DNA from: an uncultured Bacteroidales bacterium
GTDB lineage: Bacteria > Bacteroidota > Bacteroidia > Bacteroidales > UBA10428
Direction of reading: 5' to 3'
Length of the DNA: 64,000 bases
NCBI GenBank assembly: GCA_963821135.1
Contig: CAWGCR010000002.1
Span: 365,841-429,840 of the forward strand
The position numbers and the translations under genes are program-made. Positions 29,994 to 64,000 of the stretch are shown in pieces (the first letter of the stretch is position 1; each line of letters begins with the position of its first letter). The notes beneath the pieces were generated by a model. That model was not told the origin of the DNA. It did not search any database and saw only the letters and a program-made list of their open reading frames with translations.

Positions 29994-32089
29994 TAATGGT
30001 TCGTCTTCATTTTACGTTTTAATAGTTGTGCGTTAATGGCTACAATAATAGTACTCAAACTCATCAATACCGCTCCCATAGCCGGATTAATAAATATTCC
30101 GGCATTGATAAAGTACACCTGCAGCCAGTGGTATAGCCACCACGTTATAGCCTGTTGCCCAGATAAAATTCTGTATCATTTTTTTATAGTGTTTCTTTAC
30201 CAAACAGCACCAATGAAGCAATGTCTTTAGGATTACTGTTTACAAGAATAATATCTGCTGTTTCTGCTGCTACATCGGTACCCGAACCAACGGCAATACC
30301 TACATCGGCTGTCGCTAAGGCTGGTGCATCGTTAATGCCATCGCCGGTCATAGCAACAAATTCCCCGTTTTTTTGAAATTCTTTTATTTTTTCCAGTTTC
30401 TGGTCAGGTAATATTCCGGCAAAATAGCCATCAAGACTCAATTCATCACTTACGCTTTTAGCTACTTTTTCATTATCACCTGTCATCATATACAATTTCA
30501 GGCCATTGTTTTTTAATGTTTTTACGGCTTCATACGATTCCGGTCGGATTTCGTCTGCCATGGCAATAAACCCGGCTAATTCATCATCAACCATTACAAA
30601 AACAACTGTTTCCTGCTCATTTTTATATGCATTTTTCGGAATTTCAATGTTCATGTTCCTTGACATATCCGGGGCTTACAACCTTTACTTTTTTGTTATC
30701 TACATCTGCTTCAATGCCTTTTCCGGTAATGGCATTAAAATTTTCAGCCTCGGGTATTTCGATATCCTCTTCTTTTATTTTATCCATAATGCCTATAGCC
30801 AAAGGGTGCTCAGATTTCGATTCCAGGGCTCCTGCCATTCTTAAAATTTCTTTGTCATCGAAATCTATCATTCACAGATATATATCTTGTCACGCCGAAA
30901 TTACCTTTGGTAAGCGTGCCTGTTTTGTCAAATGCCAGCAAGCTTATTTTTCGGGAATTTTCGAAAGCTGTACGATTTCGGATTAATAATCCTTTTTGTG
31001 CCGAAATAGAAGTTGAAATAGCAACAACCAACGGAACAGCAAGCCCCAATGCATGAGGACAAGTAATCACCATAACACTGGCCATACGCTCTAAGGCAAA
31101 AACAAAAGGCTTACCAATGATTAACCAGGTGGTAAGTGTTCCAAATCCCACGGTAAGGGCAATAATAGTGAGCCAGAAAGCAATACGGTCGGCCAGGTGT
31201 TGGGTTTTCGATTTTTTGCTTCTGTGCATCGCGTACCATATTAATTACTTTATTCAGATACGCATCTTCACCAACCTGTTTAACCCTAATTTTTAGTGAA
31301 CCGTTGCCATTTATAGTACCTCCAATAACCTTATCATCATTTCCTTTTTTTACCGGTTTTGATTCTCCGGTTACCATCGATTCATTCACATTGCTTTCGC
31401 CTTCTTTAATAACGCCATCAACGGGAATTTTTTCCCCAGGACGAACCAGCACCCATCTCCTGATTTTAGCTCATCGACTTTTACATCTGTTGTATCCCCA
31501 TTTTCCAGTCGGTGCGCTTCGGACGGCATCATTTCCACCAGCTTTTGAAGCGAGCGAGAAGCACCCATTACGGATTTCATCTCAATCCAGTGGCCAAGCA
31601 GCATAATGTCAATTAAAGTAGCCAGTTCCCAAAAGAATTTTTTGCCTTCCAAGCCCAAATGTGGTTGCCGAGCTATACCCAAAAGCTACCGTAATTGCCA
31701 CTGCTATAAGGGTCATCATGCCAGGTTGTTTCTTTTTTAATTCATCCACCAAACCCTTAAGGAACGGCCAACCACCGTAGAAATAAACAAATGCTGATAA
31801 GGCTGAAAAGGACATAACCAGAAAAGCTAAATGTGAAACTATAACCTAACAAGCCTTGTATCAAAGGGGAAAGAACCAGTATCGGAATGGTAGCTATGAG
31901 CGAAACCCAGAATCGTTTCCGAAAGTCAGTAATCATCATGGCATGATGACCTGAATGGTCATGCGAACCGTGTCCACCGTGTTGGTGATTTTTATGTTCC
32001 TGGTGTTTATGTTGTTTATGGTCATGATTATGTTCTGAATGATTTTTCATTTGTTTATAATTTATTTCAATTGCCAAATGGAACCGCAA
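29994..32089 (-). pseudogene. copB: His-rich-N-terminus P1B-type (CopB-like) heavy-metal ATPase, fragmented into at least 8 ORFs
   Basis: Fragments in order on the minus strand. 31757-32089: His-rich N-terminus (HNHDHKQHKHQEHKNHQHGGHGSHDHSGHH) plus first TM helices. 31386-31815: TM helices. 31111-31452: actuator domain ([14 protein letters not shown]…). 30855-31229: TM and CPx region, then phosphorylation site (FDKTGTLT). 30184-30871: nucleotide-binding/HAD domain (MTGDGINDAPALA…). Hand translation of 29994-30150 gives the C-terminal TM (…WATGYNVVAIPLAAGVLY…AINAQLLKRK*). Confidence 0.8.
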
Positions 32090-32281
32090 ATAAATTTAAT
32101 CATCCTATTGTGTGAAAATTTGGACGATTAAATTTAAATGCTTGTTTCATAATACATCATTTTTATGTTCTTTCTATTGACACATGAAAATTTTATACCA
32201 TAAATAATTAGTTGCAATGTTTAGCTTGTATTGCCCATGTATTCAATAAAATGAATTTTAAATTATTTTAATTGTATTTAT

Positions 32282-32325
32282 AATGTGGTAACAAATCCAC
32301 ACTGTTATGAATTTGTTACCACATT
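32282..32325. promoter_or_regulatory. Perfect 15-bp inverted repeat (AATGTGGTAACAAAT-N14-ATTTGTTACCACATT) between the HMA-like gene and copB
   Basis: Read directly from the sequence. It is either a strong terminator-like hairpin downstream of the 32352 stop, or an operator in the copB promoter region. Confidence 0.45.
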
Positions 32326-32351
32326 CTTGCAAAATCTATGATTGAATCTTT

Positions 32352-32723
32352 TTAATGCATATGACCACTATGGTCTTCTTTCTTAGCAGGTGCTCTATCA
32401 TATTGACAACAGCCCGGTAATGCATTATAGGCTTCATCTTTCGCTTTGTGCATTTCTGTATCATGACCTGCTTTGGCTATAGCCATGTGAACTTTATGCA
32501 CATCGGTTTTGGTGCTGTCAAATGAAACCGCTATCATTTTGGATTCTTTGTTCCAATCGGCTGTTGTTAAACCATCAACTGATTTTGCTGCTTTTTCGAT
32601 ACGGCTTTCACACATACGGCAGTTTCCATATACTTTGAATTTTGCTGTTTTTGCTTGCCCAAATACCGTTGTTAAGCTCATCAGAGCTATTACCATTGTT
32701 AAATAAATTGCTTTTGTTTTCAT
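32352..32723 (-). CDS. Secreted HMA-like metal-binding protein (CxxC + C-terminal CCQY)
   Basis: 123 aa, signal peptide, GNCRMCESRIEKAA (CxxC in an HMA-like ferredoxin-fold context) and PGCCQYD near the C-terminus. Confidence 0.55.
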   Translation of the reverse strand: MKTKAIYLTMVIALMSLTTVFGQAKTAKFKVYGNCRMCESRIEKAAKSVDGLTTADWNKESKMIAVSFDSTKTDVHKVHMAIAKAGHDTEMHKAKDEAYNALPGCCQYDRAPAKKEDHSGHMH

Positions 32724-32751
32724 ATCTTAAAATTTAATTGATTAGTAAAAA

Positions 32752-33039
32752 TTACTCTCTTGTATACTGGCAGCAAGAAGGTAGATTTTCATATGCTTCC
32801 TGCGATGCTGTTTCTTTTTCTGTATCATAACCAGCGTTGGCTATTGCTTTATGGATTTCAGATAGGTTTACTTTATCCTTATTATAGGATAGGTGTATTT
32901 CCTTAGTTTCAGTACTCCATTCTGCCAAATTAACGCCTGTCAAACTGCTTGCAGCTTTCTCAATTGTAGATTTACACATTTCACAATTTCCTGAAACCTT
33001 AAACATGGCTTGTTCTATATTGGCATCCATATTATTCAT
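32752..33039 (-). CDS. HMA-like metal-binding protein, paralog of 32352-32723 (CxxC + CCQY)
   Basis: SGNCEMCKSTIEKAA…PSCCQYTRE. The ORF track extends to 33075, but that portion overlaps the 3' end of the upstream adaptor gene. The start is probably MNNMD… at ~33039. Confidence 0.5.
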   Translation of the reverse strand: MNNMDANIEQAMFKVSGNCEMCKSTIEKAASSLTGVNLAEWSTETKEIHLSYNKDKVNLSEIHKAIANAGYDTEKETASQEAYENLPSCCQYTRE

Positions 33040-33063
33040 TTTAGGTTCAGGTTGTTGGTGTGC

Positions 33064-34444
33064 TGATATGGTCAACCTCTACTGTTTCTTTTATTTCCAT
33101 ATTGCCCTGCCCGTCCGGCAGGCGGGCATGATTGTGTTCTGTAGAAACATTTACCACCTCCGGGATTCATCATACTTGGTATTACCTGTCAATTGTGCTG
33201 CAGCATCAATTTTAAATACTCCATTGGTTGCAATTTCTTCACCTTCATGTAAACCTTCTGTCAACAATATAAAAATTACCTGCTTCTGGTCCTAGAGTAA
33301 TTTCACGATATATAAATGAAGGCTTTTCTCTGTCCTGGTACTTTAACATATACTACGGCTCTTTTTCCTGTCCATAAGAATTGCTGATTTTGGAATCAAT
33401 AAGTTCATTGCGTATTTTCAGCAATATTTGATTTCAGAAATTCCATTTGCAAACATTTCCGGTTTTAGATTCTAGATTTGGATTATTTAATTCAACCCGA
33501 ACTTTTGCCACTCTTGTTTGTAGCATCAATAAAAGGATCGATAAATGTTACTTTTCCATGAATATTTTTCCCGGGAATGATTGAATTGTAAATTCAATTT
33601 ATCCCTATTTTTAATCCAGGGCAAATCACTTTCATAAGCATCAAACATTACCCAGACCTTTGATAAATCAATTACTTCAAATAAAGCAGTAACCTTCTTT
33701 TACATAATCACCAATGGAAATATGCCTTTTTGTAACTGTTCCGGTAATTGGAGATTAGAATTTCAAAGTATTCTTTGGTTCTCCATTTGTTTCAATAGCA
33801 TCAATTTGTTTTTCAGTTAAATCCCATAAGTTTTAATTTGGTGCGGGTGAACTTTGTAAAATGAAGGATTTGATTCTTTGTATTTTACGGCTTCAAATAG
33901 TTCTTTTTGTGCGGTTATTAATTCGGGTGAATAAATTGTCCCCAAGCTTTTGACCCTTTTTTACATTTTGTCCGGTATAGTTGATAAAAAGTTTTTCAAT
34001 TCTTCCACCAAATCGTGCTGTAAGTTGCGATATATTTACGTTCATCTGCTTTTACTTTACCAAATAATTGAATCGATCTTTTTCAGGCATATCCCTTTTT
34101 AACAATTGTTGTTTGAATCTCTGCCAATTTCATTGCCGATTCAGTCATCTGAATTTCATTTGGGTCAACATCTTCACCTTCGATCTGCACTGATGCCATC
34201 GGAACTAATTCCATTGCACAAATAGGGCATAAACCCGGTTTGTTTTGCTTAATCTGTGGGTGCATTGAGCATGTGTAAACTAGTTTCTTCAACTATCGGT
34301 TCCTGTTCGTGATACGTGATGTCAGCTGTTTCTAGTTCTCTGAAGAATGAAAAAACAACCAACCCAAAAAATAAGCCTGCAATCAGTAATGTATATCTAA
34401 TATCAGTTTTTATATCTTGTTTTATTATTTATATTTGTTTTCAT
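33064..34444 (-). pseudogene. cusB: HME-RND periplasmic adaptor (CusB/CzcB-like), heavily frameshifted
   Basis: Hand translation shows MKTNINNKTRYKN* near 34444, then in another frame a TM helix (LLIAGLFFGLVVFSFF). ORF 34083-34292 carries the metal-binding N-terminus (YTCSMHPQI…GLCPICAMEL). Downstream are many short shifted ORFs. The C-terminus (…MEIKETVEVDHISTPTT*) ends at ~33064. Confidence 0.55.
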
Positions 34445-34462
34445 CTTAATTTGTATTTTTAA

Positions 34463-35719
34463 TTATTTCCCATTAAATAATGTGATAAATGCTACAGCTG
34501 CTTCTTTATCGGCTGTTGCTTTTTCAAGTTCCAAGAGCATATTTTAAAAGCTTCCGTTCCATTCGTAATATCTCTTCAAAATTTATATCATTTGTGGCAT
34601 ATTCTGATTCAAGAATATGAAAGTGACTTTTCTGCTAATTCTAATTGCTTATTGATATAAGTGAATACCTTCTGTTTGCATCCTGATAATCTTTCCAAAC
34701 ACTTTCAAATAAGACTGTTCAAGAGTATTTTCCTTATCAGTTTTTTCATTTCTCTTTTGCTTCTTGCAGAAAGACCACTTCCTTAACTTTTGACTTTGTA
34801 TTTTTTTCGATACAGAGGAATGGTTAATACCAACTTTAGGAAACACAAAAGCATCTTGTCCTGCATTGATTGCCGTTGAATTACCTTTTCCAATGAAAGT
34901 ATAGTCAATTCCAACATTGAGAATTGTGGCAAGCCCTTCTTTTGAGGCAGACTTCTTGCGATATTCTAAACCTTCAAGTTGATAATCGAATGCAGCTAAA
35001 CTGATGATTATTTAGCCATTAAACTATCCAAGTCCAGCTTGTTTAAAAGCAACATTACTGTCCAGAATTCTCAGGAATTTGAACACTTGAAATTCACATC
35101 AACATTTAACAAATTGTTGAATTTCACTTTTAAAGCGTTTGAATTATCTTTCAACAAAGCCAACTGATTTTCAAGGTCGTTAATTTCCATTTCCACCCGT
35201 AATTCATCAACAGCTGATGCATGAACCTGATTCGATTTTAATATTTGCCAAGCCTTTGAAAGAGGTTAGAATTGCGATATTCTCTAATTGTAATTCCAAT
35301 TGCTTTTTTATTAAAGATACAAGATTAAAATAGGTAGCTTTAACATCAAAGAATAATTTTGATTTAGCTTCTTCAAATATTTCAAATTTTGCTTTAGCCA
35401 ATGCTTCATAGCCAAATTTTCTCTTGCTCATAAAGTTCCAAACCAGGGAAACATTTGTGTAAGCGGATATTTTTGCTTGTTGAGGCCCATCTTGTTTCAA
35501 CAGGCTGAATGAAATACCCAAATGCAATTGTAGGGTCAGGTAATGCTCCCAACTTGTGGAACTCATCTCTAAGCGAAGCCAGATATTCATTGAATTTTGC
35601 TTTTAGTCCCGGATTGTTTTCAGCAGCAGTTTCAAGATATTTTTCAATCTTCTTGAGCAGAAATAATTCCTGATAATCAGCAAAAGAAATGATCAGTATA
35701 TAATATTATATGTTTTCAT
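34463..35719 (-). pseudogene. cusC: TolC-family outer-membrane efflux factor, frameshifted
   Basis: N-terminus by hand translation: MKTYNIIY* then …LEKYLETAAENNPGLKAKFNEYLASL…LPDPTIAFGYFIQPVETR, a typical Bacteroidetes OMF start. ORF 35207-35590 carries OMF helical repeats. The C-terminus ends …ATADKEAAVAFITLFNGK*. Confidence 0.55.
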
Positions 35720-35754
35720 GTATACCTTTTCTTTTAATGATTTAGACATCTTTT

Positions 35755-38700
35755 TTACATTTCTCTCCTGCCACATACTATAGAGCACAGGAACAACAAA
35801 AATGGTAAGTATGGCAATGAGCATTCCTCCAACTGTGGGATTGCCATCGGAACCATAATATCAGAACCTTTTCCTGTTGATGTTAGTACAGGCAATAAGG
35901 CAATGATTGTTGTTGCAGTTGTCATCATTGCAGGGCGAACCCTTTTTAATCCGGCCTCCAAAACATTTGCACGAACTTCCTCAATGATTTAGGTGCTTTC
36001 TTATCAAATAATTGTTTTAGATATGTACTTATAAGTACACCATCATCTGTTGCAATTCCAAATAAAGCAATAAATCCTACCCATACTGCAACACTCAGAT
36101 TAATGGTATGAATCTGAAACATATTCCTGTAAATGAATTCCAGCCAACTGTGAAATTCATAAACCATGACTGACTATATAACCAAAGCATGATAAAACCA
36201 CCTGAAAATGCAACCAAAATTCCTGAAAATATCAAACTTGCTGCAGTAACTGACCTGAATTGGAAATAAAGGATCAGAAAAATCATAATCAAGTGAAATA
36301 GGAATTACAATCAACAATCGTTTTGTTGCCCTTATCTGATTTTCATAGTTTCCTGTAAATTTATAATTTACCCCGGTGGGATACTTATAATACTCCTTGT
36401 TCAATTTTTTCATTTAGATAATCTTGAGCATTTTCTACCACATCAACTTCTGCATAACCTTCCTTTTTATCGAAAATTACATAACCCACTAAAAAGGTGT
36501 TTTCACTTTTAATCAATTGCGGTCCACGGGTATATTTGATAGTTGCTAATTCACCTAATGGAATTTGAACCCCTGAAGGAGTTGGAATAAGAATTTTTTT
36601 CAAATCTTCAGGATTATCTCGGTATTCCCGAGCATATCGTACCCGAACAGGAAAACGTTCACGGCCTTCAACTGTTGAAGTCAATGGCATCCCGCCAATA
36701 GCACTACTTAATAGTCATTTGAAAATCCTGCAATGGTTAATCCGTAGCGGGCAATAGCATCACTGATTAATATCAATTTCCAGATATGGTTTACCAACAA
36801 CCCTGTCGGCAAAAACAGACATTCGGTTTAACACCTTCAACATTCTTTAAATGATTTTCCAAGTTCGAAATCCAACTTTTTCAATAGTTTCCAAATCTGG
36901 CCCAAAAACTTTAATTCCCATTGGCGCGCGCATTCCTGTTTGCAACATTACCAAACGTGTTTGAATGGGTTGTAATTTTGGCGCAGAAGTTAATCCGGGA
37001 ATGTTTGATTGTTTAACAATTTCATCCCAAATATCATCAGGAGATTTTATATTTTCACGCCATTGCCGGAAATATTCTCCTTTTAATCTTCGGATTAAAT
37101 TGATCTTTTTCGATTACTCTGAAATTCATCTGTTTTTGGATTATAAGTTGCTACCATCCATTAAATACAAATGCACCTTCCTTATTCACTTTAAATCGAA
37201 TTCGATGACCATTTTCATTCAACATGAATTCCGATTTATAATTGATTACATTCTCAAACATTGAAATTGGGCAGGGTCAAGAGCTGAATTTACACGGCCC
37301 CATTTACCAACAACATTATCAACTTCCGGAATTGCATTTACCTTTTTATCAAACATTCGAATAACTTCAAGGTTTTCTTCAATCCGGAATGAGGCATGGT
37401 TGTTGGCATTAATAAGAAATGAACCTTCATCTAGTGCTGGCATAAATCTTTCCCAATACCAGGAAATGTTTTATTAAATGATTGCCATACTTTGACTTCT
37501 CTTAATGTATCAGGCATAAATCCAAACATCTTATCGAATCCTTGCCATGTAAATTCCAAATAGAACAACAAATATTGGAATGCTTAAAAATTTCCATTTA
37601 TTAGCTAATGCCCATGTTAAAATTCTCGAATAAGAATCTGACAACCAATAACATTGCAGCTAAATACTAACTCCAATCAATAATCCGACGAAGAAAAATT
37701 TGAAAAATCACTGTTCTGCGCACCCAAGTGGCATCCACTCTTTTGTGAGTAGCCAAGTAACATAACCATAACCAATGCTAAATAGGAGAATCGAATCAAC
37801 TATGAATAATAATCGTTTCCATTGTCTCAGGTAATTGGAATTTTACTTCTCATTATTAATCCCTTTTGAGGGCATCCATTTAAAGTCAAGAAGATTGTTA
37901 ACACCAATACCAACTAAGGCAATGGCTATAAATATCTTTACCAAAGAATATAAAGCTTATACCTCAATAAGTATGAAAATTGCATTTAGAACTTGCTTCG
38001 TCTTTTTTCTATCAATTTTAATTGAGAAATATAATATGAGCCATAGCTGGAATAATGACCAAACCAATAATTAATGCTGAAAGCATCGCAAAGGTTTTTG
38101 TGAAAGCCAATGGTTTAAATAATTTTCCTTCGGCTGCTTGCATTGCAAATACAGGTAGAAAACTAACTATAGTAGTTGTTAAAGCCGTGATAACTGCAGG
38201 TGCAACCTCTACTGTAGCATCATAAATTATCTTTAAGTAGCTTTCCTCTCCTTTATTCTCCAGTCAACTCGATATGCCGGATAATATTCTCTGTAAATAC
38301 CACTCCGACATCCACCATTACACCAATTGCAATTGCAATACCTGAAAGAGCAACAATATTAGCATCTACACCAAACCTCCGCATGGCAATAAAGGTCATT
38401 AATACTCCAATAGGCAGTAAACTTGAAATAAGAAATGATGCACTTAGATTAAGAACCAGAATAATAATTACGATGATACTGATAAAAACTTCGAAAGTAA
38501 GTGCTTCTTCCAAGTGTTCCAAGTGTTTCTTTAATTAAGCCTGTACGGTCATAGAAAGGAACAATGGTAACCTTTGAAACAGTTCCATCATCCAATATTT
38601 TAGATGGCAATCCGGTTGAAATTTCTTCAATTTTGTCCTTAACATTATTGATGACCTCCAAAGGATTTGCTCCGTATCTGGCAACAACTACACCACCAAC

Positions 38701-39604
38701 TGCTTCAGCACCTCCTTTATCTAATCCCCCTCTTCGACGTAGCTGGCCCAAAACTTAACTTTTGCTACATCTTTAATCCTGAATTGGGATATTGTTTTTC
38801 ACGCTAACAACACTCTTTTCAATGTCTTCAAGACTTTTAATATATCCTAAAGCTCTGATCAAGATATTCTGCACGGTTAAACTCAATGGTTCTTGCACCA
38901 ATATCCAGGTTACTCTTTTTAACAGCATTCATTATTTGAACGACAGAAACACCATGGCTTTCATAGCATTAGGGTCAATATCTACTTGATATTCTTTAAT
39001 AAATCCACCAATAGATGCCACTTCAGAAACTCCTTTGGCAGCAGTTAAACCATATTTTACATAAGAAGTCTTGTATGGTTCTTAACTCATGGGGATCCCA
39101 TCCCCATTTGGGTTTCCTTTTTTGTCACGTCCTTCGAAAGTGTACCAATAAATTTGTCCTAATGCTGTCGCATCTGGCCCCAATGCAGGGTGTTACTCCA
39201 TTGGGTAAAGTTCCAGCTGGTAAGAGAATTGAATTTTTCAAGTATTCGGGTTCTACTCCAATAGAATTCAATATCTTCATCAAAAATGATGTAAATACTT
39301 GATACTCCGAAAATAGAATTACTCCGAATGGTTTGTAACACCGGGAATACCGAATAATGCAGTTGTTAAGGGATAGGATATTTGGTCTTCAATATCCTGT
39401 GGTGATTGTCCTGCCCATTCGGTGTACACGATTTGTTGGTTTTCACCAATATCAGGAATGGCATCACAGGAACAGGGTCAGAAGGAAGAAACCTGTTTCC
39501 CAACTGAATGGTGACGAAACAATTCCCCAAGCGATAAAAATCGCAAGTAGCAGGAATGTCACCAACTTATTCTCTAAAAAGAATTTTATGATTTTGTTCA
39601 ACAT
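35755..39604 (-). pseudogene. cusA: CusA/CzcA-family heavy-metal efflux RND transporter, fragmented into >12 ORFs
   Basis: N-terminus by hand translation from 39604: MLNKIIKFFLENKLVTFLLLAIFIAWGIVSSPF…[17 protein letters not shown]…, continuing into ORF 39159-39341. Fragment 38253-38751 has …AIGVMVDVGVVFTENI… Fragment 36385-36690 is the periplasmic C-terminal domain. Fragment 35755-35961 has the C-terminal TM (RVRPAMMTTATTIIALLPV). Confidence 0.75.
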
Positions 39605-39712
39605 ATCTTATGAATTTGATAAACATTCTATTTATAAAAAGTTACGGCAATTAAATTGCATAACAATACAACTCGGTTATAAGGTGAATTGTAAATCAGT
39701 AAAATAGAATAT

Positions 39713-40127: not shown

Positions 40128-42523
40128 TTAAATTTCATATTCAACCGAATCATTTTTTTCAAACACCTTCGATTTTCCTTTTACATTTATTTTAATGGGT
40201 TGTTTTAACCAACCCTGATCAAATTCTACGCTTAGCTTTTTATGGTTTATATGTAGTTTTATCCAATGGCTGCGGTAACGGATTTGAAGGCTTATTTCCT
40301 TTACTTCTTCCGGCAAACGGGGATTAAGCCACAACATTTCATGGCGTATTTCCAATCCGGTGTAACAGCGCTGGATAATATCCACTGTACCTGCCATTGC
40401 ACCCAAATGTATTCCTTCGGGCGTAGTTCCTCCCTGTACATCTTTCACATCGCTTAAAAGTGCTTTTTTAAAATTATGCCACGACCGTTTTCTGTCTGAC
40501 CGTGCCAAAACCCAGGAATAAACCACCTTGCTGAGTGTAGGACCATGGGATGTTATTTTTTGATAATACGCAATGTTTTCAGGGATTTGCTGGGGTTTGA
40601 ATTCATATCCCAATCGACTGAACATCTCTACCAATTTACTGGACGAAAAAAGGTAAAATAACATGATAACATCAGCCTGCTTGTTTGCCCGGTAGTTGTT
40701 TGGCGAATCATTCTCTTTTTCTAAAATACGATCTAAGCGCATCACTTCGCCATGTTTTTCGCGGTATTTCTTCCAATCCAGTTCTTTTAGCTTATCAAAC
40801 CCTTCGAACTGCATAATAATGTCTGTCTTCATTGAACGGTATATACATTTTCCTGGTTAGCTTCTTCCAAGATATCCACATCATCTTGAACTACTCCTGT
40901 TTTTTCAAAAAGTTCTTTCACAAATTCATCGTCAAACAATTCTATAATATCGAGGGCACATTGTATTACCCAAACAGCCATAAGATTGGTATAGGCATTG
41001 TTGTTTAAACCAGGCGAATCAGAACCCGGATAGCTGGTATGGTATTCATCGGGACCCATCACACCCCGGATTTCATATCTGTCGCGTTTGGGGTTATGTT
41101 CGGCAATACTAGACCAGAAAAGTGCTGTACTAAGAATAATTTCAGCGCCATAACCGGCCAAAAAGTCTATGTCGCCGGTAGTTTGGTAATATTGCCACAC
41201 ATTATAAGGAATGGCCGCATTGATATGTCTCTGTAACCTGGAATTGTCAGGTATCCAACGTCCTGATTTTGGGTTCAGGTGAATCATCTGGCTTTCTTCA
41301 CGACCATTACTACCGCTTTGCCAAGGGTACATAGCCCCCGATACCCATTTTTTTCAGCTGCCTCCCGTGCTTTTGGCAAGCGTCGATAGCGGTACATAAG
41401 CAGGGAACGGGCAAGGTGAGGATTGTGCAAATTGATAAATGGGAATATAAATAATTCGTCCCAGAATATGTGACCACGATATGCTTCGCCATGCCACCCG
41501 CGTGAGGGTACGCCTATATCGTATCCAACACTGTGTTTGGAAATTGATTGGTACAAATGAAAAATATGCAGACGCAATATGAAAATATCTCCATTTCCTG
41601 TTTTAACATCAAAATTGCTATGCTTCCAAATTTGCGACCATGCTTTTTTGTGTTTATCCATAACACTTTTAAAAGACTTGGTTTGAGCCACTTTATTTTT
41701 GGCTTCGTTCAGCGGGTCACTAATGGCAAAATCATTTCGAAGTATAAGGGCTTACCAACTTCTCAATACGAACAGGCTCTAGTTTGGAACATTTAATTTT
41801 TATATCCTGCCATACCGATTTCTCGTCACTATATGTCTGTCTTGGGGCATTTAGTTCGTTTTCATTCTGAAAAAGCTTTGTGCCTGCTGCCTGAGCCATG
41901 AGAATTTTTGATTGCTTGGAAGTACAGGTCAGATAGATATAATTTTCGTTAAATTCGCCTTTATCGTTAATATCAATGTGTTTTCCGTTTAAATCACTAT
42001 AGCGTTTAACACCATTGTTGGTAATGTTACCATTAATGCCAGAGCGAACCGTAAATTTTCCTGACCAGTTTTCAGGTATGATTGTCCACTCAATTCCGGC
42101 AAGGTGCGGGTCGTGCATGCTCACTATGCGTCGGCTCAGGATAGAGGTTTCACGTTTATTCGCATCGCGAAATCTGATTTTGCGTTCAAGCACTCCTTCT
42201 TTAAGGTGCAGGCGAACCACGTAATCCAAAACTTCTGTTTTTTGAATGTCGAGCCAATCTTCTTGTTCAATGTTTATGGTCAACATTAACCAGTTTGGCC
42301 AGTTCACCAAATCTTCGTTTTCGATTTTTTTATCCTTAATTTCTGAGACTGCACGGTTATATCCTCCTGCCAGGTATGTGCCCGGATAGTTATACTCATT
42401 ATCGGCAGCGAATTCCAAAGCACCTCGTGTAGCGAAATAGCCATTTCCTAAAGTACACAGGGCTTCGGTTAGCGGATGTTGTTCCGGGTTCCAGTTATTG
42501 TATTCCAGTATCCAATTGTTCAT
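40128..42523 (-). pseudogene. GH65 family disaccharide phosphorylase (trehalose/kojibiose/maltose phosphorylase-like), split by 3 frameshifts
   Basis: Four consecutive ORFs (41732-42523, 41284-41691, 40829-41332, 40128-40832). The GH65 catalytic region is present (GWHGEAYRGHIFWDELFIFPFI; MYPWQSGSNGREES). Confidence 0.75.
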
Positions 42524-42535
42524 CGTATTGTTTAT

Positions 42536-44102
42536 TTAGGCCGATAATTCCTGAAGAAATAAACGTACCTGGTACACATTTTTCAGTGCATATTTAGCGG
42601 CACTGGGTTGTTCATGAAACCCGACCAATATGCCTATACCTTTGTCTGATAGCGTACGGAAAGCATCTTCGTCTGTGACATCATCTCCTATGTAAATGGG
42701 CAGCATTTCCGGGTTTTTGTCAAAACCCAGCTTTTCCATTATCCAGTTAATGGCTTTTCCCTTGTGCCAGTCAACATCGGGCTTTATTTCCACAATTTTT
42801 TTGCCTTCGCCTTTTTTAAATCCCGGATAACGCGCCAGTAAAGCATTCGCTTTTTCCTTTATTTTCAGGTTCGTTGTCTTCCCCGGCATTTCTGAAATGC
42901 ACACCTACAGCATAGCGTTTTCTGTCAATTTGCACACCTTCTATTTCTTTTAACGATGTGCTCAGTTCTTTTTCTATGTGGTCGAGTTTGGGCAATATCT
43001 CTTTTGATTTTTCATGTTCCATGTATAGCCCGTTAGGTCCTGATATTCTAAAGCCATGACTACCCGCATAAATAAGGTTTTCGATATCTACCCTGCTTTT
43101 TACATCGTCCATATCCCTGCCACTTACTATGGCTACAGAAAATTTTGATGCGCATTGTTCAATCACGTTTTTCATTTCTTTTGAAAGAATGGCATCTTCC
43201 GGGCGTTTTACAATTGGTGAAAGGGTACCATCGTAATCCATGAATAGTACAAGTGTTTTATCGGCTGCAATATCATGAAATTTTGTTTGTTTCGAAAAGG
43301 CTGATGGCAAAGATTGGGTGAAGTAGGGTTCAATTTCCCGGTTGTTGAATAAGTCGATTTCTTTCAGGTTTTTCACTACAACATCAGCGCCGTTTTCGTA
43401 CAGTATGGTTTCATTATCGGTTCGGCTAACCCCTATTACAAAAGCGAAATTGCCTTTACTGCCGGCCTGAACTCCCGATATGGCATCTTCAACAACCACG
43501 CATTTTTCCGGACTGGTTTCCAGTTCATGTGCAGCCTCAATGAATATATCGGGTTCGGGCTTTCCTTTTATTCCTTTATCTTCTGCTACCTGACCGTCGA
43601 CCCTTGCATCAAAAAGATTATCGACACCAGCAGTTTCAAGAACGTGCTTGCAATTTCTGCTGGATGAGACTACGGCAGTTTTTAACCCGTGGTACCGCCA
43701 ATGTTTGATTTGTTGAATGGCATTCTCATAAACGTCTACACCCCTGTCGTGCAACAAATTTAAAAAAAGTGCATTTTTTTTGTTTCCCAGGCCATGAACG
43801 GTTTGTTCATCCAATGCGTCATAAGTAGAACCTTCCGGCAAATCTATGTTTCTTGATTCAAGAAAACTTTTTATACCTCCCAGCCTCGGTTTTCCATCGA
43901 TGTATTGGATATAGTCTTCATCAGTCATCAATGGGTAGTCTTTATTTTGTTTTTTCAAAAATTCATTAAACATTTCTTTCCAGGCTTCTTTATGTTCTTT
44001 AGCCGTTTGGGTGATTACCCCGTCCATATCGAGAATCACGGCTTCCATGCCTGAAATTTTAAGTTGTTTTTTATCTGCTTGCTCTATTGTTTGCGTATCC
44101 AT
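42536..44102 (-). pseudogene. Beta-phosphoglucomutase-like HAD domain fused to trehalose-6-phosphate phosphatase (OtsB-like) domain; frameshift near 42860-42900
   Basis: N-terminal HAD with DMDGVITQT (DxDG). Second half has FMDYDGTLSPIV (T6PP motif I). ORF 42536-42904 supplies the OtsB C-terminus (DWHKGKAINWIMEK…IYIGDDVTDEDAF). Confidence 0.7.
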
Positions 44103-44146: not shown

Positions 44147-45083
44147 TTATGAATCAGGCCTTAACCAATCGTTTATTTTATCTGTATCGACTTTTCGGCA
44201 CAATTCAGAACCGGGGGTCATGGCGGCGGCTGTCCCTGCCGAGACACCATACCTGGCAGCATGGGGTGGCCACAGCCCTTTTGCCAGACCCGTAACCATT
44301 CCTGCTACCATTGAATCTCCAGCACCTACTGCGCTAATTACTGGCATTGTTGGGGGTACAATGTAGTTAATGACATCTGTGTTATGGGCAATCATTGCCC
44401 CTTTAGCACCCAATGAAAGAAGCAAAATGGAACAGGCTTCTTTTTTAAGAAATTCTTTGGTTGCTTGTTCCTGTTCCATTCCTGTTATAAGCTTCTTTTT
44501 CTAGCAGTTCTGCCATTTCACGCAGGTTGGGCTTTATCATGTACACCCCTTCATTAAGTGCTATTTTTAGCGGCGTACCCGAAGTGTCCAGAATCATACG
44601 TATGTCATTTTGGTTACAATGCCTTGCCAATTGCGCATAAAAATCATCAGGCACACCTGGTGGCAGGCTTCCACTGGCTGCGAGGTAAGCTGGTTTTTGT
44701 TTTATTTTTTTTAATTCTGACAAAACGTTTTTCCAGTTTTCTTCTTTAATAGCATTGCCCGGCATACCAAAACGGTATTGGTTGTTTGTTGTCTCGTCAA
44801 GCACCATCAGGTTTTCCCGAACATTTACCCCTGAATCTATTTGTTTGTTATGGACGCCTTCTTCATTAAGTAATTTTACTAAGGAATTACCGTTAGTGCC
44901 TCCTGCCAAAAAGAATGCTACAGAATCGCCGCCCAGTTTTTTAATAGCCCGCGATACATTTATTCCACCACCACCGGGGGCGAAAGAAGGCGTTTTGCAA
45001 CGGATTTTCTTTTCCGGTACAACCAGTTTGGCGCTGGTGTTTTTATCCAGTACGGGATTCATGGTAAGCGTAACAATCTTCAT
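44147..45083 (-). pseudogene. PfkB-family sugar kinase (1-phosphofructokinase/tagatose-6-P kinase-like), one frameshift near 44470
   Basis: N-terminal half has the GG motif (FAPGGGGINVSRA). The C-terminal ORF carries PfkB signature 2 (AVGAGDSMVAGMV). Confidence 0.75.
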
Positions 45084-45094
45084 GGTAGTATGAT

Positions 45095-45927
45095 TTATTT
45101 TGATTCGGTAAGTATGGACATAGCTTCCGGTGACAATACCCTGAATGTGAACGATTCGGTTAGGTACAATTTCACTTTTTCGTTGGTATGGCTATCATAT
45201 CCAATGCTCATGTCCTGTCCGAGTGTTAGCTCAAAATCGCCTCCTCTTTCCGTAACAAGATAAGAATTGGTATTGCTGTGATTAATAATAATCCGGCCTT
45301 CTATTATTTCCTGTAGTTGCTTTAAAATAGGATAACCTTTGGCCAGGTTTATCAATCCCTGCCATTTTTTTTCGTTTATTGCAAGGGTATATGGACCCTG
45401 AACACCATCTTTCCGAAGTTTCATTACTTCGGCGCCTATACTTTTTAAAAATTCATTGGGGTCATCGGGCAGGATTACTGCTTTATGTGAAGCACTTTTT
45501 CCAATCCTTTTATCCGGCCTTCTTCAAAACCTTTATAAATGGCGGTATCTTCAAAAAGAGCTATTTCTTTAGCCGCGTTTTCTAATGGTTCTAAATCTAT
45601 ATCTTTTGCGCCCCGGCTCAAATTATCCAACTCCCATATTTCCAGTTCAAAGGGTTTTCTTATTTCAATAAAAGGCATAATTTCCCTCAAGCCATAGTTG
45701 ATTCCCTCTTTGGATTGTTTTTTGGGAGTTATAAGTCTTCCTGTGGAAACACCTCCCTGTTCAAGGCCTGTTGGCCCTTCAATATCAACAAATTTGCGTG
45801 CAGTGAGATGTATTTTAAATATGGCGGAAGCCTGCTCTGTTATTTCTTTCCAGGCGGCTTCTGTGATTGGTGCTATGGATTTCTTTAATATGTTCATAAT
45901 TATTTTTTTTGACGTTAGATAATACAA
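45095..45927 (-). pseudogene. Family 1 encapsulin nanocompartment shell protein, one frameshift between 45424 and 45475
   Basis: N-terminal ORF (LKKSIAPITEAAWKEITEQ…ARKFVDIEGPTGLEQGGVSTGRL) and C-terminal ORF (RGGDFELTLGQDMSIGYDSHTNEKVKLYLTESFTFRVLSPEA) both match HK97-fold encapsulin (linocin M18) conserved blocks. Confidence 0.8.
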
Positions 45928-46000
45928 ATCAGGGAATAGAGGTTGGGCGGTAGAATTGTATACATAAATTTACAATCAGTACCTTTTTAACTTTTAAATG

Positions 46001-46291
46001 CTACTCTCCTTCAATTTTTACAATGTCTTTTTCGGTGAACAGATAGGTTTTTAAGTGCTCTTCCCATCCGTCCATGTTTCTGCGGAGCCATTCCAGTACC
46101 ATACAGGCATGTTCCATTTCTTCATCGCGATTATGTTTTAATATTTTTATTAATTGCTTGTCTGTTGCTGCATCCATGCGTTGCTGGTACCAGTCAACGG
46201 CCTCAATTTCTTCTTTTAAAGAATTTAAGGCGCGCATATAATCTTTTGTTTCTTTTGAGAGAAGTTCTGGGGGTTCATGATAATTCTTCAT
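46001..46291 (-). CDS. Encapsulated ferritin-like protein (EncFtn) cargo
   Basis: 96 aa. HEPPELLSKETKDY…EAVDWYQQRMDAATD…HNRDEEMEHACMVLEWLRRN…HLKTYLFTE matches the EncFtn family essentially block-for-block (ExxH iron site). Directly upstream of the encapsulin gene. Confidence 0.8.
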   Translation of the reverse strand: MKNYHEPPELLSKETKDYMRALNSLKEEIEAVDWYQQRMDAATDKQLIKILKHNRDEEMEHACMVLEWLRRNMDGWEEHLKTYLFTEKDIVKIEGE

Positions 46292-46398: not shown

Positions 46399-46900
46399 CT
46401 ATTCAATTCGTAACGATTTAGCCATTTTCATGAATTGCTCTTTGAGCTTAGTATTGTTCGAGTTTGCTGTATTTAAATAGGCATTTACCCGAATCAGACT
46501 ATCTGAACGGCTAACCAATACTTCAGCGGAATCTACTTTGTAAATTTTGCCTGTATATCCGTCGTCAAAAGAGAATTCGTGTGTTGTCTGATGAGCTGAT
46601 AAAAACTGATCATTCTCGTTTACTATCATTTCACCATAAACTTTTATTTTAGATCCAGAATAAGAAGTAGAAATGAAATAGCCATCCCCGTTATCACTTA
46701 CATCTATAGCATTCCAGCTTTCCGGTATACTAAAACTAAAGTGGTACCTGGCATTACATATTTTCTGATAGTTTATGTTTCTGTATTTCTTTATTCTTTT
46801 GCTGACAACTATTGCATGAGTACAACCCACTTACCAGTATAAAAATGCAATACCTGATAACAATTGTATAGCTATTTTTTTTCCTCGCATGTGTTATAAA
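46399..46900 (-). CDS. Hypothetical (lipo)protein, N-terminal signal region disrupted by a frameshift
   Basis: 143-aa ORF. Upstream in another frame: [19 protein letters not shown] (hand translation), suggesting a broken signal peptide. Confidence 0.3.
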
Positions 46901-47505
46901 TTTTCTCTGTTAAACAGTTCGGCCACTTTATCCCAATTCACCACATTCCAAAACGCTTCGATGTACTCTGGCCTTTTGTTTTGGTATTTAAGGTAGTAGG
47001 CATGCTCCCAAACATCGAGGCACAAAATCGGGGTTCCTTTAATTGAGGCAATATCCATTAAGGGGTTATCCTGATTAGGTGTGGATGTAACAACAAGCTC
47101 ACCATTATCTTTTTTTACCAACCATGCCCATCCTGAACCAAATTGAGTAGCAGCAGCATTAGAGAATTCCTCTTTAAGCTTATCCAGTGTTCCAAAATAC
47201 TTTGTAATTGCATCGGCAAGGCGAACATCCAGCTTTTCCTGTGAATGGGGTGATAAAAATTGCCAAAACAAGGCATGATTAAAAAAACCGCCTCCATTAT
47301 TTCGAACTGCATCGCTATGTTTCGATATTTCAGCAAAAATTGTCGATGGGGTTTTATTCTCCAACTCGGTCTTTTCGATAGCAGCATTAAATTTTTTCAG
47401 ATATGCTGCATGATGCTTTGTATGATGAATTTCCATTGTTTTCGCATCAAAATGTGGTTCCAATGCATCATAACTAAATCCTAATTCTGGTAATTTAAAA
47501 GCCAT
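46894..47505 (-). CDS. sodA: Superoxide dismutase, Mn/Fe family (Mn-type signature)
   Basis: 203 aa. Metal ligands in HHTKHH and [19 protein letters not shown] (the Mn-type LKYQN block). Confidence 0.9.
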
Positions 47506-47542: not shown

Positions 47543-48303
47543 TCATTTAGCGGTCATTCCACCATCAACTGGTAAAACAGCACCCGTAATGAAGCTACTT
47601 TCCTCGCTGGCCAGGAATAATGCAACACTGGCAATTTCTTCGGATTTGCATATCGCCCCAAGGGAATTGCCTGTTCAAAATTCTTTTTAATTTCATCTCC
47701 TTTTCCCGGGCTAAATCCTTCTTCAAGGGAACGCATCATTCGGTTGTCTACCGGGGAAGGATTTATAGTGTTAACACGAATATTTTGGGGTGCACATTCC
47801 AGTGCGGCGCATTTCATAATGCCGATAGTGGCATGTTTACTGGCCACATAGGGCGAAACATTTGCTGTTCCCTGCAAACCTGCTACGGATGAAGTGATTA
47901 TGATGCTTCCGTTATCATTCATTTCAGGAATGACATGTTTTAGTCCGAGCCATACGCCTTTAACATTTACATCCATTACTTTTTGAAACATTTCCAAAGG
48001 GTATTCGGTTATGGGTTGTACTTTGCCTTCGATACCGGCATTGTTGAAGAAAATATCCACTTTTCCGAATTCCTCTTTTGTGGTTTTGGTATAGTTGGCT
48101 ACGTCTTCATTTTTGCTTACATCGGCCACCACGTATTTTATGTTTTTATTGCCAATATCCTGAACGGTTTTTTCAAGTTCATCTTTTTGTAAGTCGACAA
48201 GCATTACATTGGCGCCTTCGTAGGAAAAAATCCTTGCGGCTTCTTTTCCTATTCCACCGGCACCTCCGGTAATGATTGCTGTTTTACTTATTAATCGTTC
48301 CAT
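47543..48303 (-). pseudogene. SDR-family oxidoreductase (3-oxoacyl-ACP reductase-like) with a C-terminal frameshift near 47635
   Basis: TGGAGGIGKEAA…YVASKHA are intact. After …GRYANP the annotated frame gives nonsense. The alternate frame gives the canonical SDR C-terminus ([31 protein letters not shown]). Confidence 0.65.
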
Positions 48304-53682: not shown

Positions 53683-56110
53683 TCATCTTGTTAATTCTTT
53701 CTCCAAAAATTTGATCTTTTGTTTATTTTTAATTCTCTGATTTGATTCTGCCAGTTTCCTTAATAACCCCCGTACTTCTTTAAACGATTCTAAGTGGTAT
53801 TTTGCCAGTGTTTTATTGATACCCGCCTTTATAGTAATGGCTGAATCAGGTAATTCCTCATACAAATTTTCATCGGTATAATCATCACCAATGGCCAGGA
53901 CAAAACAACGTTCACATGTATTCAAATATTCCACCGCAGATTTTCCTTTGTTAAAAACACTACTTTTTATTTCAATTACTTTGTTTCCCTCGATGATTTC
54001 CAGTTCCTGGTTTAATATCAGGTTGTTTAATTCTTCTTTTAGCTCAACAGCACAGAAATACCCAGGTCGGGATCAGTATTTCTGTAATGCCAGGAAATGG
54101 AATGTGTTTTTTCTTCAATTAAACTTGCAGGTGTTCGGTCGGTATAGAATTGCACTATGGGAAGAACAATATCCTTCCATTCATCCTTTAAAGAACCATT
54201 TTGAAGGTTTACCCAATTTTTAGCCGGTTCTTTAATCCACACCCCATGTTCCACTATTAGGGTATAATCTTTTGTGGAGAACCATTGGTCGAAAGTCTCT
54301 TTTCCCCTGCCGGTAATCAATACTACGGTGGTGTTATCATTTTTCGAAAGTGTGTCCAGAATATGGTATAATTCTTCATCGGGTTTTGCTTTCCGTGGGC
54401 TTTTTTGGTAGTTTACCAATGTGCCGTCATAATCCAGGAAAAGGACTCGCTTCTCTGCTTTTTTGTATTGTTCTACAATTTCATTCTCGATTACCGGGCT
54501 TATCTTCTTCGATAAGTATTTTTGTTGGATAACCGGCATATTATTCAGACTTTGAATAAAGTCTGATGCCCAGCGTTTCACATCGTATCGCTTGATGTCG
54601 CTCGCGCAAAAAGGTGTTTATTTCTATTTGTTCATCTACAGGCATTTCCAATGCTTGTTTAATGGCATGGGCTATTTCATTTTTATTGTTTGGATTTATC
54701 ACGAGGGCTTCATTCATTTCTTTATAGGCGCCGGCCATTTCACTTAAAATGAGTACACCGGTATTATCAGTGCGGGAGGCCAGGTATTCCTTCGCCACCA
54801 GGTTCATGCCATCACGAACCGGGGTAATTAAAGCAATATCACACGAATTATAAAGTTCAATCAGGTTATTGAAGGGAAGTGAACGGTAAAAATACCAGAT
54901 TGGCATCCAGTTTATCGAAGCATATTTTCCATTAATACTGCCCACCAACTCATCAATTTCACTTTTCATAATTTGGTATTGCTCTACATTTATGCGAGAA
55001 GGTACAGCCAGCATAAGCAAGTGTTACTTTCCCATGATATTCTGGATACTTGTTCAAGAAGTGTTCAAAAGCAGTTAACCTGTTGGGAATACCTTTTGAA
55101 TAGTCAAGCCTGTCGATTGAGAGTATCAATTTGCAGTCCGGGTTAACCTTATAGAATTTTTCAATTTCTGCTTTTATTTCTGATTGTTCGTCTGGCTGGT
55201 TTTGTCCACTCAATAATGCAGCGCTGTTAAACTTTTCATAATCAATGCCCATTGGAAATGCATCGGTTTTAACAATGCGGTTTTCTAAATTAATCTGATT
55301 GAAATATGTTTCGTGACCGAAAAGACGCCTTACACTACTTAAAAAATGCCGTTCGTAATCGTAGGTATGAAAACCAATTATATCGGCCCCAAGCATGCCT
55401 TCGAGCAGCTCTTCCCGCCAGGGCAATACCCGGTATATTTCGTAAGACGGGAAAGGGATGTGCAAAAAGAATCCAATAGAAACATCAGGAAATTCCTGCC
55501 GAATGAGTTTAGGTAAAAGCAATAAGTGGTAATCGTGTATCCATATTTTATCGCCCTCTTTAATATTTTTTAAAATAGCTTCTGCAAACTTCCGGTTAAC
55601 CCGTACATATGCATCCCATTGATTATCTTCGTATTCCGTGAATTGCATAAAATAGTGAAAAAGTGGCCAGATGGTTTTGTTGCTAAATCCCGTATAGTAT
55701 AGTTCTTCATCTTCCTTATCGATATAGACCGGTATGCAGTTTTCCTGGCTCAAACGGTTTTCAATAGTATTTTTTGTGTTTTTTGAAATCTCGTTTTCGC
55801 CAAATCCCGGCCAGCCATACCATTTACTTTCATAATTCTTATATATTGATTTCATGCCTGTTGCCAGTCCGCCTACGCTTGGAGTGATTTCGATAGATTC
55901 ATTATCGCTTATGTTAATCGTTTGTGGCAACCTGTTTGATACTATTATCAGTCTTCCCATATTCTTTTGTAGTGTTTTGTATAGTGCTTTTTCAGCCAAA
56001 CCTGTGCCATAAATACTTTTCTTCATTTTATTTCTGCTGATTGAGTAATTTTTGAACTGTGTTCGATTATCTAATAGCTTAATAGTAAGAACTGATATGT
56101 GTGAACACAA
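53683..56110 (-). pseudogene. otsAB: Bifunctional trehalose-6-phosphate synthase / trehalose-6-phosphate phosphatase (OtsA-OtsB fusion), split by at least 3 frameshifts
   Basis: 54959-56110 has the GT20 OtsA N-terminus (RLIIVSNRLP…GGLATG…WIHDYHLLLLP…GFFLHIPFPS). 54541-55020 has the OtsA C-terminus. 54039-54581 has OtsB (VLFLDYDGTLV). 53683-53934 has the OtsB C-terminus (LAIGDDYTDENLYEEL). The true start is probably MGRLII… near 55965. Confidence 0.8.
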
Positions 56111-56173
56111 GAACGAAAAAAAATATTTCCAAAATACTCTTGGTAAAAGCGATTAGGAATTGAAATCTCTTAT

Positions 56174-59785: not shown

Positions 59786-60298
59786 ATGTTCACAAAATTA
59801 ATTTTACTAACGGCAATTAGCTTGACAATTTCAACAGGTTCATTTGCACAAAACAATTCAAAAATGAAAAGTATCAACAACAACGCACCAGTAAAGTGCA
59901 GCAAGTCAATTACTATAAATGCAAGTAGTGAAAAAGTTTGGGAAGTAATGACCAACATTGACAATTGGGCAACTTGGCAGACCGACATCACTAAACCTAA
60001 ACTGAATGGAGGGTTAAAACCTGAAACCACCTTTGACTGGAAAACTGGTGGAGCAAAAATTCATTCTACACTTCATACCGTTGAACCTTTTAAAAACTTC
60101 GGATGGACAGGAAAAGCTTTTGGTATGTTTGCTATACACAACTGGACATTAACCGAAAACAACGGACAAGTGATAGTATCAGTTGACGAAAGTATGGAAG
60201 GTTTTTTTGCGAAACTTTTGAAGAAGTCATTCAATAAGAACTTAGAAAAAGGTATGCAGTATTGGTTGGACTTATTAAAACAAGAATGCGAAAAATAA
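59786..60298 (+). CDS. Secreted SRPBCC-superfamily (polyketide cyclase/AHSA1-like) protein
   Basis: 170 aa, signal peptide. SRPBCC pattern (…SEKVWEVMTNIDNWATWQTDI…). Confidence 0.55.
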   Translation: MFTKLILLTAISLTISTGSFAQNNSKMKSINNNAPVKCSKSITINASSEKVWEVMTNIDNWATWQTDITKPKLNGGLKPETTFDWKTGGAKIHSTLHTVEPFKNFGWTGKAFGMFAIHNWTLTENNGQVIVSVDESMEGFFAKLLKKSFNKNLEKGMQYWLDLLKQECEK

Positions 60299-60401
60299 CA
60301 TGGCAGAAAGAAAAACGGAATATAACAATGGTAGCTGTTGCACAACCCCGTTTTAGCCCTCAATATTAAATCGAATACAGTTTTATAAAAAGGTTTTAGG
60401 T

Positions 60402-61996: not shown

Positions 61997-62304
61997 GGTG
62001 TTTTATTTTCAAGTTACAAAACCATCATACTCAATTCAATTTCTTATACTTGTAGTTGTGAACAAATTATGAGTTATGCAACAGGCACAATGTGTATAAT
62101 TCATAAGGGTTTCAGAGGTTTTCGAGCGTTATCACCCGCTTCAATTTTGGGTGGTAACTTGATAGGTTTGAAGTCCGAAATCCCTTACGAAATCATACAC
62201 TAAACGGCCTGTGCAAAAACCTTAACAATTGTTAATAATCTTTAGTCTGCATTTCCAGGAATTGGTGTTTTGTAACTTGTATACCATACCAAACACACTA
62301 TTCC

Positions 62305-63749: not shown

Positions 63750-64000
63750 ATGAAATGGCTAATATTAAGCCTTTTTAAGCAGAAAAAAGATATGCCTCTA
63801 AAAATCAGATTTGAGACACAGAGAAATAAATATGGCCTATAACAAGTGTTAAAACAAGTTATTGCATATATTTATTCTGCTAAAACGGATTTTTGCATAG
63901 ACTCACGTTGTGGCTAATCTGAGAACATCGTACTAAACAAACAACTCCAGAAACTGTTAATTATTTGAGATTGAATAATATCACTTTGAATGTTACTATA

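Follow-up and report, generated by a model that had tools for sequence, protein, structure and literature searches.

The window analyzed here, a stretch of 64,000 nucleotides from a contig of an uncultured Bacteroidales bacterium (GenBank: CAWGCR010000002.1), contains an encapsulin locus that is composed of a gene for an encapsulated ferritin (EncFtn; 46001..46291, minus strand) and a gene for a family 1 encapsulin shell protein (45095..45897, minus strand), the latter interrupted by a frameshift in the deposited sequence. In all likelihood the two genes make up an ordinary family 1 encapsulin system such as is common in Bacteroidales and Marinilabiliales, and the frameshift is very probably an error of the assembly consensus, the shell gene being intact in the organism. 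Such a system is already known and can be annotated automatically; the locus alone adds nothing new to encapsulin biology.

The EncFtn gene is intact and encodes 96 amino acids. Its product matches the whole of the Pfam profile PF22277 (EncFtn-like; E 5.2e-41, 138.8 bits, cutoff 27) and scores 139.2 bits against the NCBIfam model TIGR04535 (encapsulin-associated ferritin-like protein; cutoff 125), of which positions 1-92 of 114 are covered and positions 93-114 are unmatched. The solved structures that it matches include EncFtn of R. rubrum (5DA5, E 2.8e-32, about 60% identity), EncFtn of H. ochraceum, and NE0167 of N. europaea (3K6C, E 5.6e-27). According to a residue-level alignment to 5DA5, the ferroxidase center E28, E58 and H61, together with Y35, corresponds to E32, E62, H65 and Y39 of R. 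rubrum. Compared with the orthologs at two related loci (L008 and L011), the gene contains no frameshift, and the ratio of nonsynonymous to synonymous substitution rates (dN/dS) amounts to 0.05-0.07. It adjoins the shell gene across an intergenic spacer of 103 bp (45898..46000, minus strand), and the same adjacency is found at nine related loci; the corresponding spacer is shorter in Sunxiuqinia (14 bp) and longer in L008 (about 240 bp).

The shell gene runs from an ATG at 45897 (MNILKK...), where its orthologs start too, to a TAA at 45095-45097. As deposited, it does not form an uninterrupted open reading frame (ORF), and two ORFs are called instead (45475-45897 and 45095-45424). Once a single base is restored, the gene encodes a shell protein of 267 amino acids that matches PF04454 over profile positions 1-253 of 253 (E 5e-80) and NF041155, the equivalog model for the family 1 encapsulin nanocompartment shell protein, over positions 1-258 of 261 (E 5e-82, 275 bits). 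The T. maritima shell structures 3DKT and 7K5W are matched at E ~1e-64 over residues 1-263 of the repaired protein, which is about 45% identical to the T. maritima shell over its full length. The intact ortholog in L008 is identical at 91% of the nucleotides and, in a frameshift-aware alignment, at 92% of the amino acids over 266 codons, with a single shift (-1) and without stop codons; a scan of genome contigs with the repaired protein returned relatives at 67% identity or less. Hence, the original prediction of an EncFtn gene beside a family 1 shell gene is confirmed by profile and solved-structure matches for both genes, and the objection that the two might bear no similarity to these families falls away.

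Residues of the peptide-binding groove are likewise retained. R34, D38 and the motif GQD(M/L)SIGY, which reads GQDMSIGY in the window, are conserved across 14 aligned shells. Mutagenesis of the K. pneumoniae encapsulin KpEnc showed that cargo loading depends on the luminal groove residues Arg34, Asp38, Asp229 and Ile230 (PMC10960027); the equivalence to D229 and I230 is drawn here from the conserved motif rather than from a direct alignment to KpEnc. W88 of the window shell (codon at about 45,634-45,636) is equivalent to W87 of T. maritima, which stacks on the bound flavin (PMC8086157). This residue is conserved in most Bacteroidales shells and replaced by Met in two related loci (L002 and L003), and flavin binding may be a feature of the Bacteroidales shell clade.

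The lesion in the shell gene is one missing base. Nucleotide alignments and a frameshift-aware protein-DNA alignment delimit the site to 45495..45500 (minus strand) and put the lost base at about 45496 (45495-45498), i.e. in the third position of codon 133 (TTG GAA AA_ AGT). Where the window has GGAAAAAGTG (GGAAAA-AGTG), L008 has GGAAAAGAGTG, with a G at the gap, and L011 has GGAAAATAGTG, with a T. Over the 803 nt of the gene, the nucleotide alignments to these two relatives contain a single indel that breaks the frame. If the consensus is in error, the organism should carry six bases, GAAAAAAGT or similar, at 45496. The original prediction had placed a split at about 45424-45475; a single frameshift is indeed present, but this interval reflects where the two called ORFs end rather than where the lesion is. 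Relative to L008, dN/dS of the shell gene is 0.175 upstream of the lesion and 0.089 downstream of it, so that, as far as substitution patterns tell, the part that would go untranslated is not under relaxed selection.

The shell lesion is one of many of its kind. Frameshift-aware alignment to intact orthologs in four related contigs (L008, L009/L010 and L011) maps 17 single-base indels in seven genes, which together comprise about 8.2 kb of coding sequence (about 9.1 kb with the intact EncFtn and superoxide dismutase (SOD) genes). One of these indels lies in the shell gene (-45496; the sign gives a deletion or an insertion), one in the gene of a PfkB-family sugar kinase (+44492), and one in a HAD/trehalose phosphatase gene (TPP; +42866), while a GH65 phosphorylase gene has four (+41734, -41334, +40872, +40824). 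Two compensating indels affect the N-terminus of a 163-aa lipoprotein (-46842, +46780) and two lie in a YceI gene (+29203, -28983); the remaining six fall within the N-terminal 1.4 kb of a P-type Cu-ATPase. The count of 17 is a lower bound for the window, which has split genes beyond these seven, and at least 10 genes are affected. Insertions (12) outnumber deletions (five) among the mapped indels, most of which do not lie in homopolymers (e.g. CACAGAAGC versus CACA-AAGC). None of the seven genes contains an internal in-frame stop or a frame-breaking lesion of more than one base. When its frame is corrected, the Cu-ATPase is 91% identical to the ortholog in L011, with runs of about 100 near-identical residues, and the Pfam profile of PfkB is distributed over two ORFs (profile positions 21-201 and 209-298). 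The frameshifted genes show dN/dS values of 0.06-0.32 and their intact neighbors values of 0.05-0.18, i.e. the two ranges overlap.

These indels are concentrated in blocks at about 28.7-47.7 kb, 53.7-56.2 kb (53,686-56,152) and 60-62 kb (60,076-62,002), at roughly one to four single-base indels per kb. Between 30 and 40 kb, the longest open frame is shorter than 200 codons. The first 27 kb of the window have no split genes and contain full-length genes of 680-916 amino acids, such as PDH E1 (916 aa) and GH127 (680 aa), and no split gene occurs at 48.3-53.6 kb or 56.2-58.6 kb. In the terminal part of the window (62,000-64,000), all open frames are shorter than 200 codons, and short overlapping ORFs lie on both strands.

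The indel spectrum is most likely that of an unpolished long-read consensus. We base this reading on the fact that the lesions are exclusively 1-bp indels, biased towards insertions and situated in random contexts, in genes that otherwise look constrained and are free of nonsense mutations. The shell frameshift would thus sit inside a low-quality stretch of about 19 kb that is probably long-read derived and unpolished, and the patchiness would fit a hybrid assembly, in which short-read contigs were bridged by long reads or polishing failed in strain-variable islands. Errors of the homopolymer type (454, Ion Torrent, nanopore) were also considered, an idea that was borne out only in part; most of the indels are random insertions, which rather resemble the errors of PacBio CLR data at low coverage or of raw long reads.

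What must be weighed against a consensus error is that the frameshift could be real, the shell gene, and possibly the whole stress and metal-resistance island, being a recent pseudogene while EncFtn persists as a free ferroxidase. Several observations speak in this direction. The indels are not spread uniformly over the window; they cluster in patches, mainly in accessory stress and metal-resistance genes, where real decay is expected as well. Relatives have lost the shell in two independent natural events and kept an intact EncFtn (L009/L010 and L015). Furthermore, the long-read bridge is itself deduced from the error spectrum, and a scan of JGI metagenomes for the junction with either five or six bases gave no matches, so that the verdict of an artifact stays indirect.

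In bacteria, the decay of pseudogenes typically combines nonsense mutations with frameshifts, deletions and insertions of insertion sequences (IS), and it shows a deletional bias and accompanying substitutions. The window does not display such a mixture: each of the 17 mapped lesions is an indel of one base pair, insertions prevail and the sites are random, stops and multi-base lesions are lacking, and dN/dS gives no sign of relaxed selection. The shell losses of the relatives, by comparison, are large deletions and not point frameshifts. An RND pump in the same region is broken into at least eight pieces and yet keeps its full length, contrary to the deletional bias of bacterial pseudogenes. 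Nor is neutral decay credible for an ATPase that has six indels within 1.4 kb and nevertheless retains 91% identity to its ortholog. We thus regard a real frameshift as quite unlikely. The losses in relatives lend the notion of decay some prior plausibility, but they do not rescue the window frameshift as evidence for it. The decaying organelle of the original prediction finds no support in a shell lesion that is one among many 1-bp indels, without nonsense mutations, with a dN/dS of 0.089 downstream of it and with intact shells in the relatives. More generally, calls of "pseudogene", "split gene" or "decay" within the indel blocks, which make up about a third of the window, should be distrusted.

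The shell protein could also be produced from the deposited sequence as it stands, if ribosomes shifted frame in a programmed way (-1), or if transcription slipped, at the A-run GAA AAA G. Were tRNA-Lys to slip back by one nucleotide on A AAA G, exactly the orthologous ...LEKSAS... would result, as far as can be inferred. Yet the 120 best shell homologs are all single ORFs, as are the shells at all nine syntenic loci, and the site is thus not conserved. The A-run is just 5 nt long, the P-site codon GAA would be unable to re-pair after the slip, the downstream RNA structure is ordinary (z = -0.66), and about 30 other frameshifts nearby are situated at non-slippery sites. This mechanism was rejected on account of the non-conserved site, the short A-run and the lack of downstream structure; we consider it extremely improbable.

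A consensus error at 45496 leaves a locus like those of the relatives, hundreds of which possess an intact shell gene of about 267 amino acids. A short EncFtn gene is located directly upstream of an intact shell gene for 265-269 amino acids at loci L001-L004, L008, L011, L012 and L013/L014 (Sunxiuqinia indica), and in the closest relatives SOD and a conserved lipoprotein gene often precede EncFtn. The clade is nevertheless not uniform in this respect, and shell loss by deletion with survival of EncFtn is, judging from the relatives, a genuine event within it. In L009 (936-1012) and L010 (1520-1596), a gap of 78 bp separates EncFtn from PfkB, with no trace of a shell. L015 (5292-6003; from a genome of 5.9 Mb) retains just the last 52 shell codons, directly downstream of an intact EncFtn gene (44% identity, tblastn E 5e-10). 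These cases suggest that a short EncFtn can be retained without a shell, and they hint that proteins of its class can also work without one.

At its C-terminus, the window EncFtn ends in the tail YLFTEKDIVKIEGE (46004..46045, minus strand), as delimited by the tail statistics of the homologs and the R. rubrum alignment, and a motif scan of the protein found no targeting peptide of the LxIGSL or GDLGI type. Nor does it have the features of the FLP-TP subclass, i.e. a flexible linker followed by a peptide of the SLGIGSLK, GGDLGIRK or LTVGSL type. It agrees instead with the short subclass named s-FLP, which was described in a 2024 review for EncFtns of the 3K6C type (PMC11202242): such proteins measure about 95 amino acids, lack a disordered C-terminus and a targeting peptide, and end in a tail of the form LFT(D/E/N)K..I..E, to which the 96-aa window protein with its tail LFTEKDIVKIEGE conforms. 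According to the same review, s-FLP proteins were at first "classified as non-encapsulated", for want of a targeting peptide, and their tail LFTD(E/N)KPIAHE is listed as a putative, uncharacterized signal (PMC11202242).

This form is by no means restricted to the window. We compared the 125 closest EncFtns, i.e. the 120 best matches and five other members of the protein cluster to which the window EncFtn belongs. The conserved tail is YLFT[ED]K[DE]I[VTL]K[IVL]E, after which come two variable, mostly acidic residues, and 120 of the 125, those of cultured Sunxiuqinia species included, are 91-99 amino acids long with this same tail. The 96-aa form without a targeting peptide is thus the norm for a large Bacteroidales/Marinilabiliales clade and no peculiarity of this locus. 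The non-canonical C-terminus that had been described for the window EncFtn is accordingly real as to the missing targeting peptide, but not specific to the locus.

The segment DIVKI, for which a role as the hydrophobic remnant of a targeting peptide had been proposed, turns out to be something else. It aligns with PITAI of R. rubrum EncFtn (tail ...TYLFTEGPITAIE), and its counterparts in relatives that do carry a targeting peptide are DITEI and PITQV, in Enhygromyxa L007 and Planctomycetales L006; beyond this segment, these proteins continue with EEAEEG..., a linker, and finally GDLGIGKPRGS or SLGIGKFKKG. In the R. rubrum crystal structure 5DA5, residues 98-140 are not seen (PMC11202242), and because these are the only residues missing, PITAI is ordered in the crystal. 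Since PITAI is ordered, and since the same segment stands upstream of true targeting peptides, DIVKI marks where the folded domain ends and is no eroded targeting peptide. The window EncFtn stops three residues past the segment that is ordered in 5DA5; by alignment, the entire linker and targeting peptide are absent from it.

One explanation for the strong conservation of the tail could be that DI(V/T)K(I/V/L)E acts as a targeting signal of minimal, divergent form and docks in the peptide groove of the shell; the idea of a divergent signal goes back to the original prediction. Shells that are paired with cargo lacking a targeting peptide keep R34, D38 and D~230 of the groove, the s-FLP tail has been named a putative, uncharacterized targeting peptide (PMC11202242), and the T. 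maritima peptide GGDLGIRK is loosely similar. On the other hand, EncFtns with a linker and a true peptide possess the segment as well (PITAIE, DITEIE, PITQVE), and its order in the R. rubrum crystal marks it as part of the domain rather than a flexible tag. The hydrophobic residues in it are spaced i, i+3, unlike those of the LxI/LxIxxL consensus, just two or three variable residues follow it, and the conservation of the groove residues could have structural reasons. On balance, a signal function of the tail seems unlikely to us.

How s-FLP proteins associate with a shell, if they do so, is a question for the whole class and not for the window locus; throughout the class, the encapsulation of an EncFtn without a targeting peptide is putative. 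Tentatively, and with less than even confidence, we consider either that cargo loading in the clade needs no targeting peptide, for instance if the decamer docks directly, or that the s-FLP works shell-free while the shell serves other, unlinked cargo. This consideration is founded on the presence of such EncFtns beside a grooved shell in hundreds of Bacteroidales/Marinilabiliales genomes and on at least two lineages that are shell-less with EncFtn under purifying selection. Among the ORFs of the window and of the related Bacteroidales loci, no other cargo with a canonical targeting peptide was detected. The 163-aa lipoprotein was rejected as a candidate cargo of the encapsulin; it is predicted to be exported. 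The comparative data sharpen the question of the 2024 review, namely whether and how EncFtns lacking a targeting peptide are encapsulated.

By analogy with the systems of R. rubrum, H. ochraceum and T. maritima, the window EncFtn would form a decameric ring in which a di-iron center between subunits (E28, E58, H61) oxidizes Fe2+. The HK97-fold shell protein would self-assemble to give a small cage of icosahedral symmetry, probably of 60 subunits (T=1) as in T. maritima, whose homolog is 45% identical, and this cage would hold ferric mineral and keep reactive iron from peroxide as part of an oxidative-stress response. The step that joins cargo and shell might consist of direct decamer docking or of a minimal tail signal, or encapsulation might not take place at all.

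The locus is part of a conserved oxidative and osmotic stress cluster with the order SOD - lipoprotein - EncFtn - shell - PfkB - trehalose genes. An intact Fe/Mn SOD (46894..47505, minus strand) was identified by Pfam and by synteny in L008, L010, L011 and L012. Between SOD and EncFtn lies the lipoprotein gene (46402..46890, minus strand), whose product has a signal peptide and an FYSC lipobox and belongs to no Pfam family; the gene holds this position without exception in the closest relatives, and its orthologs are located at 3022-3513 in L011, 59-550 in L009 and 4499-4990 in L012. The PfkB gene (44150..45083, minus strand), split by the +1 insertion at about 44492, follows downstream of the shell gene after a gap of 11 bp. 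SOD, lipoprotein, EncFtn and shell occur in the same order in L008, L011 and L012. The broader stress context that had been claimed for the locus is well borne out by this conserved order and by the stress-related neighbors, i.e. SOD, BON, MscS, trehalose genes, YceI and copper efflux. A scan of the window for promoters and terminators yielded nothing above background and no significant consensus, and an Rfam search over the window gave no match.

Two trehalose modules are present, both on the minus strand and both intact in the relatives that have them (L009, L011). The first (40,128-44,102), downstream of the shell gene, contains the GH65 phosphorylase and a HAD/trehalose-phosphatase fusion together with PfkB; the second is a separate OtsA (GT20)/OtsB fusion (53,686-56,152), which Pfam mapping finds in four pieces. 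An SDR gene (47554-48303, minus strand) lies between a 66-aa ORF and SOD; a frameshift near 47,640 interrupts it, its canonical C-terminus continuing in another frame. The presence of this gene in the cluster varies: L011 retains a remnant of 38 amino acids (2247-2363), and L008 lacks it.

The region 30,187-39,700 (minus strand) constitutes a copper and heavy-metal resistance island with a P-type ATPase, HMA-domain proteins, CusB-like and TolC-like fragments and an RND pump. Here, the split Cu-ATPase occupies 30.2-32.1 kb, the HMA-domain proteins 32352-32723 and 32752-33075, while 34083-34292 encodes a CusB-like protein that has an HMBD domain; the CusA/AcrB-type RND pump (35.75-39.5 kb) consists of at least eight pieces, whose matches follow one another along the ACR_tran profile. 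Close to where the stress region ends, Pfam mapping places an IS transposase with the domains DUF772 and DDE_Tnp_1_6 (IS1182- or IS5-like), in four pieces (60076-62002, minus strand), which fits a strain-variable island that is hard to assemble.

In comparison with known systems, the locus shares with T. maritima (3DKT, 7K5W), R. rubrum (5DA5) and H. ochraceum (7ODW/7OE2) an operon of two genes in which the cargo gene precedes the shell gene. The di-iron center of the window EncFtn is identical to that of R. rubrum, and the shell keeps the peptide-groove residues and the flavin-binding Trp of T. maritima, whereas the cargo, unlike that of these systems, lacks the linker rich in Gly, Pro and Ala and the peptide of the LxIGSL type. 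It is in these last features that the window EncFtn resembles the s-FLP NE0167 of N. europaea (3K6C, 95 aa): both measure 95-96 amino acids and have neither a long disordered C-terminus nor a recognizable targeting peptide, and the window tail fits the motif given for s-FLP, LFT(D/E/N)K..I..E. They differ in that the Bacteroidales tail reads EKDI(V/T)KIE instead of KPIAHE, and in that a family 1 shell gene is consistently adjacent in the Bacteroidales clade. In the archaeal Flp-fusion encapsulins (P. furiosus, 2E0Z/5N5E), the EncFtn domain joins the shell without a long linker, and a short tether is hence sterically feasible; the connection in the archaeal systems is covalent, while cargo and shell of the window are encoded by separate genes with a spacer of 103 bp between them.

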